Positions 12,356 through 52,820 of a DNA stretch of 64,000 nucleotides are shown one piece after another. Every line of letters begins with the position of its first letter. Position 1 is the stretch's first letter. The translations under genes were made by a program, and so were the position numbers. The notes under the pieces are model-generated. The model had not been told where the DNA came from, searched no databases, and saw nothing but the letters and a program-made list of their open reading frames with translations. This DNA comes from Escherichia phage vB_Eco_BCPEco_001, in sequence record PV295200.1, one strand, 5' to 3'.

Positions 12356-12613
12356 ATGAAAACTTTCAAAGAGTTTGCTACAAAAACTACTATCACTGAA
12401 TCTTCCCACGGTATGGAAGTAAAGCTTGGAATGGCTTTAGCTGAAGCTGAGCGTCTTTTCTCTCGTATTAAAGAACTTGCTGCTGCGGTCGATCCTTCAT
12501 CTTTTAAAGGAGACCAAACTAAAGTTAAAGCACTTTTAGCATTATGCTCCGATGCAGGAGAAATTGCTAAAAATGGTTCTAAGATGAAGAAACGATTAGA
12601 AGATTTAAAATAA
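12356..12613 (+). CDS. internal protein (ipI-like) with capsid targeting sequence
   Basis: 85 aa; N-terminal MKTFKEFATKTTITE resembles the T4 internal-protein capsid targeting sequence MKTYQEFIAE with an LxE-type cleavage site; own early promoter. Confidence 0.65.
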   Translation: MKTFKEFATKTTITESSHGMEVKLGMALAEAERLFSRIKELAAAVDPSSFKGDQTKVKALLALCSDAGEIAKNGSKMKKRLEDLK

Positions 12614-12689: not shown

Positions 12690-12923
12690 ATGAAAACTTT
12701 CAAAGAGTTTATCGCTGAAACTGCTGATGTAAAAGTTGAGTTTATTTACACTGGCAAGAAAGATAAAATGGGTGAAATGCCTCATGGAGTTCTTCGTGAT
12801 GCATTAGATAATTTCGGTCAACTCGCCGCAGAAGATTACGGTGATAAAATTGTTGTTACTGGTCCTGCTGCAGTTATTGAAAAATGGGCAGCAGAAAATA
12901 AATCAATTTTTCGTAAAAAATAA
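12690..12923 (+). CDS. internal protein (ip-like) with capsid targeting sequence
   Basis: 77 aa from MKTFKEFIAE TADVKVE...; a possible 4-codon extension (MEIKM) would start at 12678. Confidence 0.65.
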   Translation: MKTFKEFIAETADVKVEFIYTGKKDKMGEMPHGVLRDALDNFGQLAAEDYGDKIVVTGPAAVIEKWAAENKSIFRKK

Positions 12924-39988: not shown

Positions 39989-40462
39989 ATGTTATTGACT
40001 GGCAAATTATATAAAGAAGAAAAACAGAAATTTTATGATGCACAAAACGGTAAATGCTTAATTTGCCAACGTGAATTAAATCCTGATGTTCAAGCTAATC
40101 ACCTCGATCATGACCATGAATTAAATGGACCAAAAGCAGGAAAGGTACGTGGATTGCTTTGTAATCTCTGCAATGCTGCAGAAGGTCAAATGAAGCACAA
40201 ATTTAATCGTTCTGGCTTAAAGGGACAAGGTGTTGATTATCTTGAATGGTTAGAAAATTTACTTACTTACTTAAAATCCGATTACACCCAAAATAATATT
40301 CACCCTAACTTTGTTGGAGATAAATCAAAGGAATTTTCTCGTTTAGGAAAAGAGGAAATGATGGCTGAGATGCTTCAAAGAGGATTTGAATATAATGAAT
40401 CTGACACTAAAACACAATTAATAGCTTCATTTAAGAAGCAGCTTAGAAAGAGTTTAAAATGA
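39989..40462 (+). CDS. 49: recombination endonuclease VII (Holliday junction resolvase)
   Basis: 157 aa; MLLTGKLYKEEKQKFYDAQNGKCLICQRELNPDVQANHLDHDHE matches T4 gp49 from memory; zinc-binding Cys. Confidence 0.9.
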   Translation: MLLTGKLYKEEKQKFYDAQNGKCLICQRELNPDVQANHLDHDHELNGPKAGKVRGLLCNLCNAAEGQMKHKFNRSGLKGQGVDYLEWLENLLTYLKSDYTQNNIHPNFVGDKSKEFSRLGKEEMMAEMLQRGFEYNESDTKTQLIASFKKQLRKSLK

Positions 40463-42276
40463 CAATTGAAAAAGAAATTGAAGGATTGATTCATAAAACT
40501 AATAAAGACCTTTTGAACGAGAATGCTAATAAAGATTCTCGTGTTTTTCCAACTCAACGGGACCTTATGGCTGGTATTGTGTCTAAGCACATTGCCAAAA
40601 ATATGGTCCCGTCTTTTATTATGAAAGCGCATGAAAGCGGAATTATTCATTTCCATGATATTGATTATTCCCCTGCTCTTCCATTTACTAATTGCTGTTT
40701 AGTAGATTTAAAAGGAATGCTTGAGAACGGATTTAAGCTCGGTAATGCACAGATTGAAACTCCTAAATCAATCGGTGTTGCTACTGCAATTATGGCACAA
40801 ATTACTGCGCAAGTTGCTTCCCATCAATATGGCGGAACGACTTTTGCGAATGTAGATAAAGTACTTTCTCCTTATGTTAAACGCACCTATGCAAAACATA
40901 TCGAGGACGCAGAAAAATGGCAAATCGCTGATGCACTGAATTATGCTCAATCTAAAACAGAAAAAGATGTATACGATGCATTCCAAGCTTATGAATATGA
41001 AGTAAATACTCTCTTTAGTTCAAACGGACAAACGCCTTTTGTAACAATTACATTTGGTACGGGAACTGACTGGACTGAACGAATGATTCAGAAAGCAATT
41101 CTGAAAAATCGTATTAAAGGTCTTGGTCGTGATGGGATAACTCCTATTTTCCCTAAGCTTGTTATGTTTGTTGAAGAAGGTGTTAATCTTTATAAAGACG
41201 ATCCGAACTATGATATTAAGCAGCTTGCTCTAGAGTGTGCAAGCAAAAGAATGTATCCTGATATTATTTCAGCTAAGAACAATAAAGCTATCACTGGTTC
41301 ATCTATTCCTGTTTCTCCAATGGGTTGCCGTAGTTTCTTGAGCGTATGGAAAGATTCGACCGGTAATGAAATTCTTGATGGACGTAATAATCTTGGTGTT
41401 GTAACACTGAATCTTCCTCGCATCGCGTTAGATTCTTATATTGGAACACAGTTCAATGAACAGAAATTTGTTGAATTATTCAATGAACGAATGGATTTAT
41501 GTTTTGAAGCTTTGATGTGTAGAATTAGTTCCTTAAAAGGAGTTAAAGCGACTGTTGCTCCTATTCTTTACCAAGAAGGTGCATTCGGGGTTCGTCTTAA
41601 ACCTGATGACGATATAATTGAGTTATTTAAAAATGGTAGAAGTTCAGTGTCCCTAGGATACATTGGTATTCACGAATTGAATATTCTTGTCGGTCGTGAT
41701 ATTGGACGAGAAATTTTAACTAAAATGAATGCTCATCTTAAACAGTGGACTGAAAGAACCGGATTTGCTTTTAGTTTATATTCGACTCCTGCTGAAAACC
41801 TTTGTTATCGCTTCTGTAAACTCGATACAGAAAAATATGGAAGTGTAAAAGATGTTACCGATAAAGGTTGGTACACTAACAGTTTCCATGTTTCAGTAGA
41901 AGAAAATATTACTCCGTTTGAAAAGATTTCCCGCGAAGCACCATATCATTTCATTGCGACAGGTGGTCACATTTCTTATGTTGAACTTCCTGATATGAAA
42001 AATAACTTAAAAGGTCTTGAGGCCGTGTGGGATTATGCTGCACAACATTTAGATTATTTTGGTGTTAATATGCCAGTAGATAAATGTTTTACATGCGGAA
42101 GTACCCATGAAATGACTCCTACTGAAAACGGATTTGTTTGTTCTATTTGTGGAGAAACTGATCCTAAAAAGATGAATACCATAAGAAGAACATGCGGCTA
42201 TCTTGGAACTCCTAGCGTTGTTCCATGGAATTTAGGTAAAATGAAAGAAATGGTAAAACGAGTAAAACATGCATAG
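40459..42276 (+). CDS. nrdD: anaerobic ribonucleoside-triphosphate reductase NrdD (intronless)
   Basis: 605 aa continuous ORF; C-terminal glycyl-radical region RRTCGYLG and zinc ribbon CFTCGS...CSICG. Confidence 0.9.
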   Translation: MTIEKEIEGLIHKTNKDLLNENANKDSRVFPTQRDLMAGIVSKHIAKNMVPSFIMKAHESGIIHFHDIDYSPALPFTNCCLVDLKGMLENGFKLGNAQIETPKSIGVATAIMAQITAQVASHQYGGTTFANVDKVLSPYVKRTYAKHIEDAEKWQIADALNYAQSKTEKDVYDAFQAYEYEVNTLFSSNGQTPFVTITFGTGTDWTERMIQKAILKNRIKGLGRDGITPIFPKLVMFVEEGVNLYKDDPNYDIKQLALECASKRMYPDIISAKNNKAITGSSIPVSPMGCRSFLSVWKDSTGNEILDGRNNLGVVTLNLPRIALDSYIGTQFNEQKFVELFNERMDLCFEALMCRISSLKGVKATVAPILYQEGAFGVRLKPDDDIIELFKNGRSSVSLGYIGIHELNILVGRDIGREILTKMNAHLKQWTERTGFAFSLYSTPAENLCYRFCKLDTEKYGSVKDVTDKGWYTNSFHVSVEENITPFEKISREAPYHFIATGGHISYVELPDMKNNLKGLEAVWDYAAQHLDYFGVNMPVDKCFTCGSTHEMTPTENGFVCSICGETDPKKMNTIRRTCGYLGTPSVVPWNLGKMKEMVKRVKHA

Positions 42277-42288
42277 GGTTAAACACCA

Positions 42289-42921
42289 ATGAATTATGAC
42301 AGAATCTATTCAAATCTAGTTAATTCTGCTGAACACCCATCTAAGCCCCGTCAAACTAAAGCCGGGTATGAACTTCATCATATAATTCCAAGAAGCATGG
42401 GTGGTCCAGATGATTTAGACAACTTAGTATTTTTAACTTATAAGGCCCACTATACTGCTCATCATTTATTGGCTAAAATATATGGTGGAAAGATGTATGA
42501 TGCATATTGGATAATGAGTAATAGTAAGCATAGAAAAGTTACTTCTTCACAATACGCGTATGCAAAAGCTAAGAAATTTGAAAATCAGCGTGGCGCAAAA
42601 AGAAGCGATAAAACTAAGAAGCTAATGAGCATAGCTAGGTCTAAAGTAACTCTTCCTGATGATTTTGGAAAAAGGATATCTGATGGGCTAACAGGAAGAA
42701 CTTTGTCTACTAGTCATAAAGAGCATATCAAAAATAGTTCTAGAAATCGCTTTAACACCAAAACGGTTATTGGCTATTCACCAGACGGAAATACAATAGA
42801 ACTAACTGGAGCAACTGAAATAAGAAATGCAGGATTTTTTCATTCTGCTGTTTATAAATGTTGCAAAGGAATTCAATCTATTCATAAGGGATATACTTGG
42901 AAATATAAAGATGAATTATGA
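42289..42921 (+). CDS. HNH homing endonuclease, free-standing between nrdD and nrdG
   Basis: 210 aa; HNH core GYELHHIIPRSMGGPDDLDNLVFLTYKAHYTAHH; first 7 residues MNYDRIY identical to the NrdG N-terminus; 3' end overlaps the nrdG start by 11 nt. Confidence 0.65.
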   Translation: MNYDRIYSNLVNSAEHPSKPRQTKAGYELHHIIPRSMGGPDDLDNLVFLTYKAHYTAHHLLAKIYGGKMYDAYWIMSNSKHRKVTSSQYAYAKAKKFENQRGAKRSDKTKKLMSIARSKVTLPDDFGKRISDGLTGRTLSTSHKEHIKNSSRNRFNTKTVIGYSPDGNTIELTGATEIRNAGFFHSAVYKCCKGIQSIHKGYTWKYKDEL

Positions 42922-43381
42922 TAGAATATACCCGTGCTGCTTTGTTAATGGTCCTGGATGCAGGGTCGTTCTCTTCGTCACTGGATGTTTGCATAAATGC
43001 GAAGGTTGTTATAATCGTAGTACTTGGAATGCTCGTAACGGACAGTTATTCACTATGAATACCGTTAAAGAACTTGCGTCCCATTTAAGCAAATCGTATA
43101 TCCAAGGCCTTACCTTAACCGGTGGTGACCCACTTTATCCACAGAACCGAGAAGAGATTTCAAATTTAGTTTCTTGGGTTAAAGCAAGATTTCCGGAGAA
43201 AGATATCTGGTTGTGGACAGGATATAAGTTTGAAGATATTAAACAGCTAGAAATGCTTAAATATGTTGATGTTATTATTGATGGGAAGTATGAGAAAAAT
43301 CTTCCGACTAAAAAGCTGTGGCGAGGATCAGATAATCAGCGACTTTGGTCAAATACCGATGGGGTGTGGAAACATGATTAA
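42911..43381 (+). CDS. nrdG: anaerobic ribonucleotide reductase activating protein NrdG (radical SAM)
   Basis: 156 aa from MNYDRIYPCCFVNGPGCRVVLFVTGCLHKCEGCYN (radical-SAM Cys cluster); the track ORF 42827 starts earlier inside the HNH gene. Confidence 0.85.
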   Translation: MNYDRIYPCCFVNGPGCRVVLFVTGCLHKCEGCYNRSTWNARNGQLFTMNTVKELASHLSKSYIQGLTLTGGDPLYPQNREEISNLVSWVKARFPEKDIWLWTGYKFEDIKQLEMLKYVDVIIDGKYEKNLPTKKLWRGSDNQRLWSNTDGVWKHD

Positions 43382-49824: not shown

Positions 49825-50084
49825 CTTTTGATGAATTTAAAAATGTTATGATGAGTCAGCATTTTGAATGCGAAGTAAAAGATGATATTGGGCATAAAGA
49901 AATTATTGAATATTGGTTTGAACCACTAGAGGTTGAAGATAATTGTATTAAAAAGGTTACGGTCTGCACTGACTGGGCTGTATCTTTTAACTTCAACATT
50001 TTAGATAATGACACACCTAAATCATTACAAGATATGGCTGTATCTTGTATTAAGGATGCATACTGTGAAGTTTTCGACATTTGA
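49821..50084 (+). CDS. hypothetical protein
   Basis: 87 aa, ATGA-coupled to gene 47. Confidence 0.5.
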   Translation: MTFDEFKNVMMSQHFECEVKDDIGHKEIIEYWFEPLEVEDNCIKKVTVCTDWAVSFNFNILDNDTPKSLQDMAVSCIKDAYCEVFDI

Positions 50085-50271
50085 CATTAATGATGAATTC
50101 ATAGCAAACATTGATTATACCGAAGAAGATTCTAGATATGTTGGAATAATTTATATTACATCAAAAACAGCACAAGGTGTTGTTTGCATGGCTGAATTTG
50201 ATGAATACTTTTTAGATTATGATGATATGATAGAATGGTCTAAAAGATACATTAAAAGGAATCTTTTGTGA
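50056..50271 (+). CDS. hypothetical protein whose 5' end is repeated at the start of the downstream HNH gene
   Basis: 71 aa from an ATG (MHTVKFSTFDINDEF...); the track start 50008 is further upstream; 19-nt sequence ttgacattaatgatgaatt is repeated at 50284. Confidence 0.4.
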   Translation: MHTVKFSTFDINDEFIANIDYTEEDSRYVGIIYITSKTAQGVVCMAEFDEYFLDYDDMIEWSKRYIKRNLL

Positions 50272-51122
50272 AGAATTTTAAACTTGACATTAATGATGAA
50301 TTTTTAATAAAGGAATTAGTTGAAAAATTAGCGTTGAGTGAAGAAGACGCCAAGTCTTACATTAATTTTATTTCTATGAATTCAACTGTTAAAACTCCAG
50401 GTAAAACGGAAGCACACCACGTGCTTCCTAAATCAATATTTCCTGAATATTTAAAATCTACATGGAATTTAGTTAATTTAAGTCATTTTAATCATTTTAA
50501 AGCACACTTCTTATTAGCAAAAGGTAAAAATGGAAAAATGCTAAATGCTTTAAATAGAATGATGTCAGGGAAAACATATAAAAATTTATCTTTAGCCGAA
50601 GTTGATTTAATAGCTGCTGAATATAGTTTTATAAAACAAGATGTAAGTGACACAATATCAAAAAGGCTTCAACAGTATTATTCAAATCCGCAAAATAGAA
50701 ATGCTGCTAGAGAAAGGGCATTAAAATATTTTTCAGTAGCAAAAAATAGGAAAGATAACAAAGAAAGATTAAATAATTTTAAAACAAAACAAAAAATTTC
50801 AATGGCTTCAAGGGAATGGTTTAATAACGAAGAAAACAAAATTAAACACCAAAAGGCTGTTCGTGCTGCTTTATCAAAACCTGAATATAAAATAGCTATA
50901 TCAAATTCAGTAGCTGCTAGTTGGAAAAATCCGGAGATTAGAAAAGCTCATATAGCATCTAGACGAAAAGGCTATCATTGGGATAATAAAGATAAATTGT
51001 ATGAATTGTGGATATCATATAATCGTCCTAAACATGTGATGTTTAGGAAAATGTTAGTTAAGAATGGATATCCAATAGAGGCTTCATTACAGGCTTTAGT
51101 TAAAGAATTTTCTTCATTGTGA
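50268..51122 (+). CDS. HNH homing endonuclease, free-standing between genes 47 and 46
   Basis: 284 aa; HNH-like core KTEAHHVLPKS...NLVNLSHFNHFKAHF; basic C-terminal half; apparent GTG start; N-terminus KNFKLDINDEF repeats the upstream gene N-terminus. Confidence 0.6.
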   Translation: MKNFKLDINDEFLIKELVEKLALSEEDAKSYINFISMNSTVKTPGKTEAHHVLPKSIFPEYLKSTWNLVNLSHFNHFKAHFLLAKGKNGKMLNALNRMMSGKTYKNLSLAEVDLIAAEYSFIKQDVSDTISKRLQQYYSNPQNRNAARERALKYFSVAKNRKDNKERLNNFKTKQKISMASREWFNNEENKIKHQKAVRAALSKPEYKIAISNSVAASWKNPEIRKAHIASRRKGYHWDNKDKLYELWISYNRPKHVMFRKMLVKNGYPIEASLQALVKEFSSL

Positions 51123-51137
51123 ACAATTGGATACAAA

Positions 51138-52820
51138 ATGAAATCATTTAAACTTAATAGAGTAAAATATAAAAATATAATGTCAGTTGGTCAAAATGGA
51201 GTTGACATTCAATTAGATAAGGTTCAAAAAACTCTTATTACTGGACGAAATGGCGGTGGTAAGTCTACTATGCTAGAAGCCATCACATTTGGGCTTTTTG
51301 GCAAGCCATTTCGTGATGTAAAGAAAGGCCAATTAATAAACAGCACAAATAAGAAAGAACTTTTAGTTGAACTGTGGATGGAATATGATGAGAAAAAGTA
51401 CTATATCAAAAGAGGACAAAAACCAAACGTTTTCGAAATCACCGTTAACGGTACACGTCTTAATGAATCTGCCAGCAGTAAAGATTTCCAAGCAGAATTT
51501 GAACAGCTTATCGGAATGTCATATTCCAGTTTCAAGCAGATTGTTGTCCTTGGTACAGCAGGGTATACCCCTTTCATGGGTTTGTCGACCCCTGCGCGAA
51601 GAAAGCTTGTGGAAGACCTGCTTGAGGTAGGAACATTAGCTGAAATGGATAAGCTTAATAAAGCACTAATACGTGAATTAAATTCGCAGAACCAAGTGCT
51701 TGATGTTAAAAAAGATAGTATTATCCAACAAATTAAAATATATAATGATAATGTTGAACGCCAGAAAAAATTAACTGGCGACAACCTTACTCGTCTACAA
51801 AATATGTATGATGATTTGGCAAAAGAAGCTAGAACGCTAAAATCGGAAATAGAAGAAGCTAATGAAAGATTAGTTAATATTGTTTTAGATGAAGACCCAA
51901 CTGATGCATTTAATAAAATCGGTCAAGAAGCAGTTTTAATTAAATCAAAAATTGACTCGTATAATAAAGTCATTAATATGTATCACGAAGGTGGATTATG
52001 TCCAACCTGCTTGTCACAATTAAGTTCCGGTGATAAAGTTGTTTCTAAAATTAAAGATAAAGTTTCTGAATGTACGCATTCGTTTGAACAGCTTTCAACA
52101 CACCGTGATAATTTAAAAGTTCTTGTTGATGAATACCGAGATAATATTAAAACCCAACAGTCGTTGGCAAATGATATTCGCAATAAAAAGCAATCTCTAA
52201 TCACGACAGTAGATAAAGCTAAAAAAGTTAAAGCGGCTATAGAAAAAGCATCTTCTGAGTTTATTGACCATGCTGATGAAATAGCACTGCTTCAAGAAGA
52301 ACTTGATAAAATTGTTAAGACAAAAACTAATTTAGTAATGGAAAAATACCACCGAGGAATTTTGACTGATATGCTCAAAGATTCTGGTATTAAAGGTGCT
52401 ATTATTAAAAAGTACATTCCATTATTTAATAAGCAGATTAACCATTATCTTAAAATAATGGAAGCGGATTATGTGTTTACATTAGATGAAGAATTTAATG
52501 AGACAATTAAATCCCGCGGTCGTGAAGATTTTAGTTATGCTTCATTTAGTGAAGGTGAAAAAGCACGAATTGATATTGCTCTTTTATTTACTTGGCGTGA
52601 TATTGCTTCTATTGTATCTGGTGTTAGTATTAGTACATTAATACTCGATGAAGTGTTTGATGGGTCATTTGATGCCGAAGGTATTAAAGGTGTAGCTAAT
52701 ATTATAAATTCAATGAAAAACACTAATGTTTTTATAATTTCACATAAAGACCATGACCCGCAAGAATATGGTCAGCATCTTCAAATGAAGAAAGTTGGTC
52801 GATTTACTGTAATGGTTTAA
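51138..52820 (+). CDS. 46: recombination endonuclease subunit gp46 (Rad50/SbcC-like ATPase)
   Basis: 560 aa as in T4 gp46; Walker A GRNGGGKST; central coiled coil with CPTC zinc hook; C-terminal D-loop LILDEVFD. Confidence 0.9.
   Translation: MKSFKLNRVKYKNIMSVGQNGVDIQLDKVQKTLITGRNGGGKSTMLEAITFGLFGKPFRDVKKGQLINSTNKKELLVELWMEYDEKKYYIKRGQKPNVFEITVNGTRLNESASSKDFQAEFEQLIGMSYSSFKQIVVLGTAGYTPFMGLSTPARRKLVEDLLEVGTLAEMDKLNKALIRELNSQNQVLDVKKDSIIQQIKIYNDNVERQKKLTGDNLTRLQNMYDDLAKEARTLKSEIEEANERLVNIVLDEDPTDAFNKIGQEAVLIKSKIDSYNKVINMYHEGGLCPTCLSQLSSGDKVVSKIKDKVSECTHSFEQLSTHRDNLKVLVDEYRDNIKTQQSLANDIRNKKQSLITTVDKAKKVKAAIEKASSEFIDHADEIALLQEELDKIVKTKTNLVMEKYHRGILTDMLKDSGIKGAIIKKYIPLFNKQINHYLKIMEADYVFTLDEEFNETIKSRGREDFSYASFSEGEKARIDIALLFTWRDIASIVSGVSISTLILDEVFDGSFDAEGIKGVANIINSMKNTNVFIISHKDHDPQEYGQHLQMKKVGRFTVMV

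Follow-up and report, generated by a model that had tools for sequence, protein, structure and literature searches.

The free-standing T4 endonucleases MobE, SegF and SegG spread by intronless homing, as promoterless cassettes that lie between conserved genes and target the neighbouring essential gene (PMC2988022; for MobE, PMC2790892). Flanking markers are co-converted with cassettes of this type, and their expression relies on upstream genes (PMC2988022). The bypass cassette of T4 mobA and gene 60 has also been discussed (bioRxiv 10.1101/2022.08.31.505936), and the site between nrdD and nrdG, which encode the large subunit of the anaerobic ribonucleotide reductase and its activating radical-SAM subunit, is already known as a hot spot for the endonuclease genes mobC and segH (PMC2988022). 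Here we describe this junction in a stretch of 64,000 nucleotides from Escherichia phage vB_Eco_BCPEco_001 (PV295200.1; hereafter the window), where an HNH endonuclease gene, mobC, separates nrdD from nrdG and begins with the same seven residues as nrdG. We consider it likely that mobC sits as a cassette on the nrdG translation start, such that the resident start opens mobC, the cassette resupplies a start for nrdG, and the element spreads by break repair.

The mobC cassette at the nrdG start

The starts of the HNH gene and of nrdG, ATGAATTATGACAGAATCTAT and ATGAATTATGATAGAATATAC, lie 622 nt apart, are alike at 18 of 21 nt and both encode MNYDRIY. Allowing at most three mismatches, this 21-mer is present at no other site in the 64 kb (0.01 matches expected from shuffles), and a repeat search returned the same two starts as the top direct repeat of the region (20 nt, 90% identity). 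Among the 582 candidate starts in the window, all seven N-terminal residues are common to two start pairs no more than 1.5 kb apart, against a permutation expectation of 0.11 pairs sharing at least six of the seven. The identity between the mobC and nrdG starts is not an accident of random sequence. The other pair, unrelated to mobC and nrdG, is formed by two adjacent small open reading frames (ORFs; 12356-12613 and 12690-12923) that both start MKTFKEF, which may resemble the capsid-targeting sequence common to the N-termini of T4 internal proteins. A mis-called mobC start was considered and rejected: just 6 nt of open frame precede the ATG at 42289, and translation from the next in-frame ATG would begin past the first HNH histidines.

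The junction is made up of the following features, in which naive denotes a genome or junction without an endonuclease insert.

42289-42921, + strand: mobC, a free-standing HNH homing-endonuclease gene of 210 codons (T4 identity, Pfam, phrog_655)
42289-42309, + strand: upstream repeat copy, mobC codons 1-7 (MNYDRIY), at the resident nrdG start position
42310-42910, + strand: mobC-specific insert body, 601 nt between the repeat copies (alignment of T4-type, window-type and naive junctions)
42911-42931, + strand: downstream repeat copy, the functional nrdG codons 1-7 (repeat search, Pfam)
42911-42921, + strand: 11 nt shared by the mobC 3' end (..D E L stop) and the nrdG start
42911-43381, + strand: nrdG, activating radical-SAM subunit, 156 codons, mosaic (Pfam, binned identities)
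40459-42276, + strand: nrdD, anaerobic ribonucleotide reductase large subunit, 605 codons, intron-free (ORF list, Pfam)
42252-42267, + strand: 16-nt stretch GGTAAAACGAGTAAAA in the nrdD tail (alignment of the window, T4, T6 and RB51)
42276-42292, + strand: what is left of the naive nrdD tail with its stop, GGGTTAAACACCAATGA, here serving as non-coding spacer and mobC ATG
39989-40462, + strand: endonuclease VII (gene 49; ORF list)

A sequence-only reading of the window had already pointed to the shared start, to an 11-nt overlap of the HNH 3' end with the nrdG start and to an uninterrupted nrdD, and each of these observations holds. The mobC stop (TGA, 42919-42921) falls within nrdG codons 3-4. 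The nrdD protein covers all 562 positions of the Pfam NRDD profile (E = 1.5e-171, residues 21-604) and also carries Gly_radical, and the 156-residue reading of nrdG matches Fer4_12 (E = 2e-50, from residue 12) as well as Radical_SAM.

By its identity to the T4 gene, the 210-codon ORF is mobC, a known element at its known position and hot spot. Over positions 42100-43100 the sequence matches Shigella phage SHFML-11 at 100% identity and T4 at 95.2% (alignment over 985 of 1001 nt), and the ORF itself agrees with T4 mobC (T4p075, NP_049689), which occupies the same position between nrdD and nrdG, at 629 of 633 nt and 208 of 210 residues. Its product contains a Pfam HNH domain (PF01844, 26.8 bits against a cut-off of 21.4, residues 28-50) and matches phrog_655 'homing endonuclease' (E = 2e-42), and residues H30, H31, N45, H54 and H58 are invariant in the MobC family alignment. 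An AlphaFold2 model (mean predicted local distance difference test, pLDDT, 69.7) places strands at 27-31 and 46-50 and a helix at 51-65, a possible beta-beta-alpha core; its best Protein Data Bank match is I-HmuI (1u3e; E = 1.2e-3, probability 1.00), but over only 82 columns and with a TM-score of 0.25-0.29.

The window shares with T4 the 21-nt mobC start, the 3' overlap with nrdG and a T4-type patch at nrdG nt 61-300. It departs from T4 in other respects: its nrdD tail is of T6 type, with 16 extra nt; its nrdD stop falls 12 nt short of the mobC ATG (in T4 the two overlap); the first 60 nt of nrdG are T6-like (the 'PCCF' variant); and nrdD, annotated in T4 as a two-piece join, here runs without an intron.

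Comparison with RB51, a phage that lacks the insert, places the mobC start at the nrdG start codon. In this naive genome the nrdD stop overlaps the nrdG ATG (CAATGA, in ..CACCAATGAATTACGAT..; longer stretch ..GGGTTAAACACCAATGAATTACGATAGATTTTATCCC), whereas in T4 the mobC ATG stands at exactly this position (..CACCAATGAATTATGACAGAATCTATTCA..; longer stretch ..GGGTTAAGCACCAATGAATTATGACAGAATCTATTCAAAT) and nrdG resumes 622 nt on, behind ..TGGAAATATAAAG. The start codon of mobC thus stands, to the nucleotide, where that of nrdG lies in the naive genome, and it keeps the ATGA overlap with nrdD. The counterpart of GGGTTAAACACCAATGA in T4 and RB51 is the nrdD stop overlapping the ATG of the next gene. 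The 3' end of the insert body (..TGGAAATATAAAG) would form a replacement ribosome-entry region for nrdG, and the insert adds one repeat period, 622 nt, relative to naive phages.

Across phage records, the junction carries mobC in 31, a 279-residue HNH homing endonuclease gene (HEG) in 32 and an uninterrupted nrdD-nrdG arrangement in ~460; segH occupies it in T6, EC121, KAW3E185 and Pu-Krd. Genomes that are collinear in other respects thus differ at this one site in whether mobC is present or absent, as expected of a homing endonuclease gene. The proposal that the HNH gene is such a gene, inserted at the extreme 5' end of nrdG, is thereby upheld.

Host-tracking and mosaic flanks

mobC was found in three Klebsiella phages, one of which, Wolf_ER13, was compared with the HEG-less relative Kpn6N (Jiaodavirus). 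Wolf_ER13 mobC agrees with T4 mobC at 631 of 633 nt, and the sole differences, at nt 8-9 (TAT to TTC), give codon 3 of the Kpn6N nrdG start (ATGAATTTCGACAGAATCTA; longer stretch ATGAATTTCGACAGAATCTAC, MNFDRIY). The 230 nt upstream of mobC match Kpn6N at 217 positions and T4 at 118, whereas nrdG downstream is T4-type over nt 1-120 (97-100%) and Kpn6N-type beyond; elsewhere, in the 3' part of nrdG and the upstream flank, T4 and Wolf_ER13 are ~50-65% identical. Since codon 3 is resident-type and the rest of the gene T4-type, the left junction lies inside the shared codons, between nt 9 and nt 21. Within this span GACAGAATCTA is identical in mobC and Kpn6N nrdG, which narrows the junction to 11 nt.

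Judged by these identities, the comparison shows an upstream repeat copy of resident ancestry, a downstream copy of donor ancestry and mosaic flanks. The idea that the nrdG start was duplicated or co-opted, also put forward in the sequence-only reading, is accordingly borne out on both counts in Wolf_ER13, where mobC codon 3 is the resident nrdG codon and the 5' end of the downstream nrdG is of T4 (donor) type. Horizontal spread with co-converted flanks, a hallmark of homing genes, is seen as a 120-nt T4-type tract in Wolf_ER13 nrdG and a 210-nt foreign patch in T4 nrdG.

We mapped the nrdG mosaic by identities in 30-nt bins. In the window, nt 1-60 are T6-like (the 'PCCF' variant), nt 61-300 T4-like and the remainder common Tequatrovirus sequence. 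Over nt 91-300 (42911-43210 region; T4 comparison segment 1396-1695), nrdG of T4 and of the window is 40-80% identical to RB51 and T6 and 80-100% identical to Kpn6N, and from nt 301 both are ordinary Tequatrovirus. This foreign patch is likely to be the co-conversion footprint of mobC arriving from another genus. Nucleotides 10-20 of T4 mobC match Kpn6N nrdG at 11 of 11 positions and RB51 nrdG at 8 of 11, and the pattern suggests that the fusion first formed on a Jiaodavirus-like nrdG and then entered the T4 lineage together with a co-converted patch.

The nrdD tail of the window is itself mosaic. GGTAAAACGAGTAAAA is a feature of T6/segH-type phages that T4 and naive phages lack (gap placement is approximate), and the 16 extra nt shift the frame, so that nrdD ends KEMVKRVKHA* at a TAG at 42274-42276 and not KEIMHRVKHQ*. 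Over 42252-42288 this T6-type end is followed by a remnant of the naive nrdD tail, GGGTTAAACACCA, and the nrdD stop therefore no longer overlaps the next ATG. The tail looks like a recombinant of segH-type and mobC-type genomes, with the exchange within a shared 10-mer, CATGCATAGG. The window thus comprises four pieces: a T6-type nrdD tail, the naive tail remnant, T4-type mobC, and nrdG with a T6-like start and T4-type patch. This arrangement appears to be common to the seven records that match best (99.3-100% across all 1001 nt), and the mosaic fits the published view that nuclease genes mark boundaries of genetic exchange (PMC10448857). We also considered whether the 'PCCF' nrdG variant is exclusive to endonuclease-bearing genomes, as a cassette-borne immunity allele would be; this was rejected as an absolute rule, phage U5 having an uninterrupted junction and yet the 'PCCF' variant (98% over a synthetic naive plus PCCF query).

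The arrangement of mobC and nrdG has led to mis-called nrdG starts in several deposited genomes. Wolf_ER13 carries a 184-residue call that starts inside mobC (comparison segment 2041-2595), and RB27 a truncated call from LHKCEG although its MNYDRFY start is intact (comparison segment 1852-2244). Within the mobC 3' end, ~50 nt upstream of the nrdG ATG, TATAAATG (42853-42860) matches seven of eight positions of the T4 late-promoter consensus, TATAAATA.

In the mechanism that we propose, mobC would be a promoterless cassette whose seat is precisely the translation start of nrdG. Its reading frame would now be opened by the initiation site of the resident nrdG and, in effect, by the first seven nrdG codons (with the ATGA overlap with nrdD kept in T4, and a 12-nt gap after the nrdD stop in the window), and mobC would be translated from this nrdD-coupled start. 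The 3' end of the cassette would supply the replacement nrdG start, mobC terminating 8 nt past the new AUG. Going by this geometry, ribosomes that finish mobC probably reinitiate on nrdG, an arrangement that would restore operon coupling, and the 11-nt overlap is the likely site of termination-reinitiation coupling. The two copies of the nrdG start bracket the insert as imperfect direct repeats, and the fusion would be seamless because the N-terminus of the MobC family (MNYxKIY) already resembled that of NrdG (MNYDRIY). MobC is predicted to nick or cut HEG-less nrdG, whereupon repair would copy the cassette, with the right crossover within nrdG (120-300 nt co-converted) and the left crossover in nrdD or, if the sequence upstream is foreign, within the 21-nt repeat serving as a homology arm.

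Host codons in other endonuclease genes

The 279-residue HNH HEG at the same site occurs, for example, in Escherichia phages 235Ecol030PP and GADU22, Yersinia phage PST and Klebsiella phage SmallBear_ER8. In the coliphages it starts with MNYDRFYPCDFVN, the first 13 codons of naive Tequatrovirus nrdG, and in SmallBear_ER8 with MNFDRIYPSDFVN, the first 13 codons of Kpn6N-type nrdG; in both settings the gene ends ..NEL-stop in codons 3-4 of the new nrdG, followed by a 'PCCF'-type replacement nrdG start. Like mobC, this gene is in frame on the nrdG start, carries a replacement start and tracks the host lineage in its first codons. It differs in having only 38% identity to MobC over 60 residues of the HNH core and in capturing 13 codons. 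Capture is unambiguous here because the 13 codons are clearly foreign to the nuclease family, whereas the case of mobC is confounded by a native motif (see below).

A second HNH gene in the window shows a comparable layout at another locus.

50268-51122: second HNH HEG, 284 residues (phrog_655), between gene 46.1 and gene 46
50065-50271: gene 46.1
51138-52820: gene 46, which restarts with ATG (MKSFKLN) 15 nt past the stop of the 284-residue HEG

The 284-residue HEG, a homologue (35% identical), opens on the GTG of naive gene 46 and takes in its first six codons (MKNFKL), overlapping the gene 46.1 stop as gene 46 does in RB14. It occurs in 71 phage records, T2 among them; T4 and RB14 lack it. 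Separately, a 45-nt direct repeat (78%) links the gene 46.1 start (MKFSTFDINDEF, 50064-50108) to the start of the 284-residue HEG (MKNFKLDINDEF, 50267-50311), and codons 7-12 of the HEG (DINDEF, 17 identical nt) are common to gene 46.1 and not to gene 46; this sharing may reflect an earlier capture event or chance.

At the nrdD-nrdG junction, segH (GIY-YIG; T6 comparison segment 770-1600) starts ATG CAT AGG (MHR), a string found in the naive nrdD tail (..IMHRVKHQ*), and its stop overlaps the nrdG ATG. An unrelated endonuclease therefore also reuses host codons at this junction. Unlike mobC, segH belongs to another nuclease family, borrows the tail of the upstream gene and carries a rewritten nrdD C-terminus.

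Alternative explanations and known systems

The main qualification to start capture is that the first codons of mobC are both captured from nrdG and native to the nuclease family. A word-indexed protein search returned only 7 relatives, and N-terminal statistics required an exhaustive search, which gave 12,897 relatives at E <= 1e-3; N-termini were taken from 156 representatives. MNYDRIY is less surprising as an amino-acid match because the HNH family natively begins MNYxxIY, and several observations weigh against our interpretation on this account. M[ND]Y..[IVLHF][YWF] is fitted by 100 of the 156 representatives, 59 of which start exactly MNY..IY, and residues 3-13 are predicted to form a structured helix within the catalytic domain (residues 1-10 have a mean pLDDT of 79). 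The nearest other lineage, a MobC relative in Klebsiella phage KP27 (44% identical), adjoins nrdG on its upstream side with its own leader and starts MNYQKIY, KP27 nrdG itself starting MNYIRIY. A further relative, P0074, starts MNYDRIY but was found not to lie beside nrdG: it sits far from it, between gp5- and gp6-like baseplate genes. P0074 and the family motif together mean that the seven-residue identity can arise without capture. Two further points count on the same side. MobC cleavage is given as 'ND', with its target unknown, in the 2010 review (PMC2988022), and no later report was found in the literature searched. RNA folds at the mobC and nrdG starts, and at the corresponding sites of T4 and RB51, did not exceed those of shuffled sequences in stability (z = +0.2 to +1.1), and this analysis gave no sign that a ribosome-binding site or RNA structure supports or regulates either start.

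Positions 3-5 are more informative: in the MobC family positions 4-5 are mostly Q/E/K then K/R, with R at position 5 in 44 of 153, D at position 4 in 2 of 100 relatives, and F outside the six commonest residues at position 3. E. coli NrdG also starts MNY..YY. On these alignments M, N, Y, I and Y are native to each of the two protein families, and about codons 3-5 alone are diagnostic for T4-type mobC; the seven shared residues alone are no proof of capture, and amino-acid identity overstates the case. With this caveat on the seven residues, the insertion of a homing endonuclease first suggested by the sequence-only reading is supported overall.

Among Slopekviruses, most have a 175-residue ORF at the position of the KP27-type MobC-like gene. 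In Klebsiella phage Earwig_ER32 the last ~60 nt of a KP27-type endonuclease gene are fused to the upstream ORF (~315-373 of the comparison segment). Earwig_ER32 was considered as a naive Slopekvirus and rejected as a deletion derivative that keeps these ~60 nt; going by the alignment, the remnant is a deletion scar left where the endonuclease gene was lost after invasion.

Given the native motif, two family-intrinsic N-termini might simply coincide, the cassette having landed upstream of nrdG with its own start and captured nothing. The frequent MNY..IY starts and R at position 5, the MNYDRIY of P0074 among baseplate genes, the MNYQKIY and own leader retained in KP27 beside nrdG, and the predicted structure of the N-terminal helix all favour such a coincidence. 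We nevertheless regard it as unlikely, since the T4 mobC ATG lies at the nucleotide-exact position of the naive nrdG ATG, the nrdD stop overlap included; the only 2 of 633 positions at which Wolf_ER13 departs from T4 mobC recreate the resident nrdG codon 3 behind a resident-type upstream flank; and capture is unambiguous in two other HEGs, which open with 13 and 6 host codons.

Secondary homogenisation, in which mobC had another native start (e.g. MNYQKIY) and later intragenomic gene conversion copied D-R (or F) from nrdG, appears less probable still. The two starts are near each other (622 nt) and alike in a highly recombinogenic phage, and conversion would also explain a D4/R5 that is unusual for the family. 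However, the copies within one genome differ, by 3 synonymous changes in the window, by 2 in T4 and by MNF against MNY in Wolf_ER13, and the upstream copy in Wolf_ER13 matches nrdG of the HEG-less relative and not the nrdG copy that Wolf_ER13 now carries, a pattern better matched by a crossover during invasion than by intragenomic conversion. A transposon-like target-site duplication, with 21-nt repeats from a staggered cut at integration, would account for the direct repeats bracketing the insert but is very improbable, because repeat length varies at the same site (21 nt for mobC, ~40 nt for the 279-residue HEG), the copies are non-identical and, against a duplication, of different ancestry (the upstream one resident-type, the downstream one donor-type and running on into a co-converted tract of 120-300 nt), and the gene encodes an HNH nuclease of homing type with no transposase present, so that neither the identical, fixed-length duplication nor the transposase of a transposable element is found.

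Start capture by mobC thus remains our preferred explanation. The element itself adds nothing new, because mobC and its position are textbook T4 features. The wider point is that three different HNH homing endonucleases at two loci open with the first 6-13 codons of the gene they occupy and track the resident lineage. This gives a testable account of how promoterless selfish nuclease genes gain translation signals without harming a tightly coupled operon, and of how they cross genus boundaries, a crossing that a 2012 paper described as not yet convincingly shown (PMC3468402). Only tentatively would we go on to suggest that free-standing homing endonucleases of phages use start capture generally as an integration strategy, one favoured by selection and not a by-product. 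If it were, the cassette would be bracketed by target-gene sequence on both sides, and the captured codons would form a portable left homology arm with which the element could enter that gene in distant genera regardless of the sequence upstream (from T4 to Klebsiella Jiaodavirus, with an 11-nt junction). The fusion would also hijack the translational coupling of the host gene, and the likeness of the MobC N-terminus to that of NrdG would have predisposed this lineage to nrdG. The start-capture layout and its host-tracking are not described in the reviews and later papers that we compared, a set that does not extend to the likeliest source, Sandegren et al. 2005; though recurrent, the layout is of modest novelty.

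Compared with known systems, the mosaic flanks of mobC fit the intronless-homing pattern of MobE, SegF and SegG, for which in-frame use of the first codons of the target gene is not described in the literature compared. In fungi, free-standing endonuclease genes are fused in frame to mitochondrial genes with a duplicated gene end. Both these fusions and the T4 mobA/gene 60 cassette resemble mobC in that a selfish nuclease gene in or on a host gene brings sequence that preserves its function. However, they do so with a duplicated 3' end or a bypass element, respectively, whereas mobC duplicates the 5' start and leaves its host gene unsplit.

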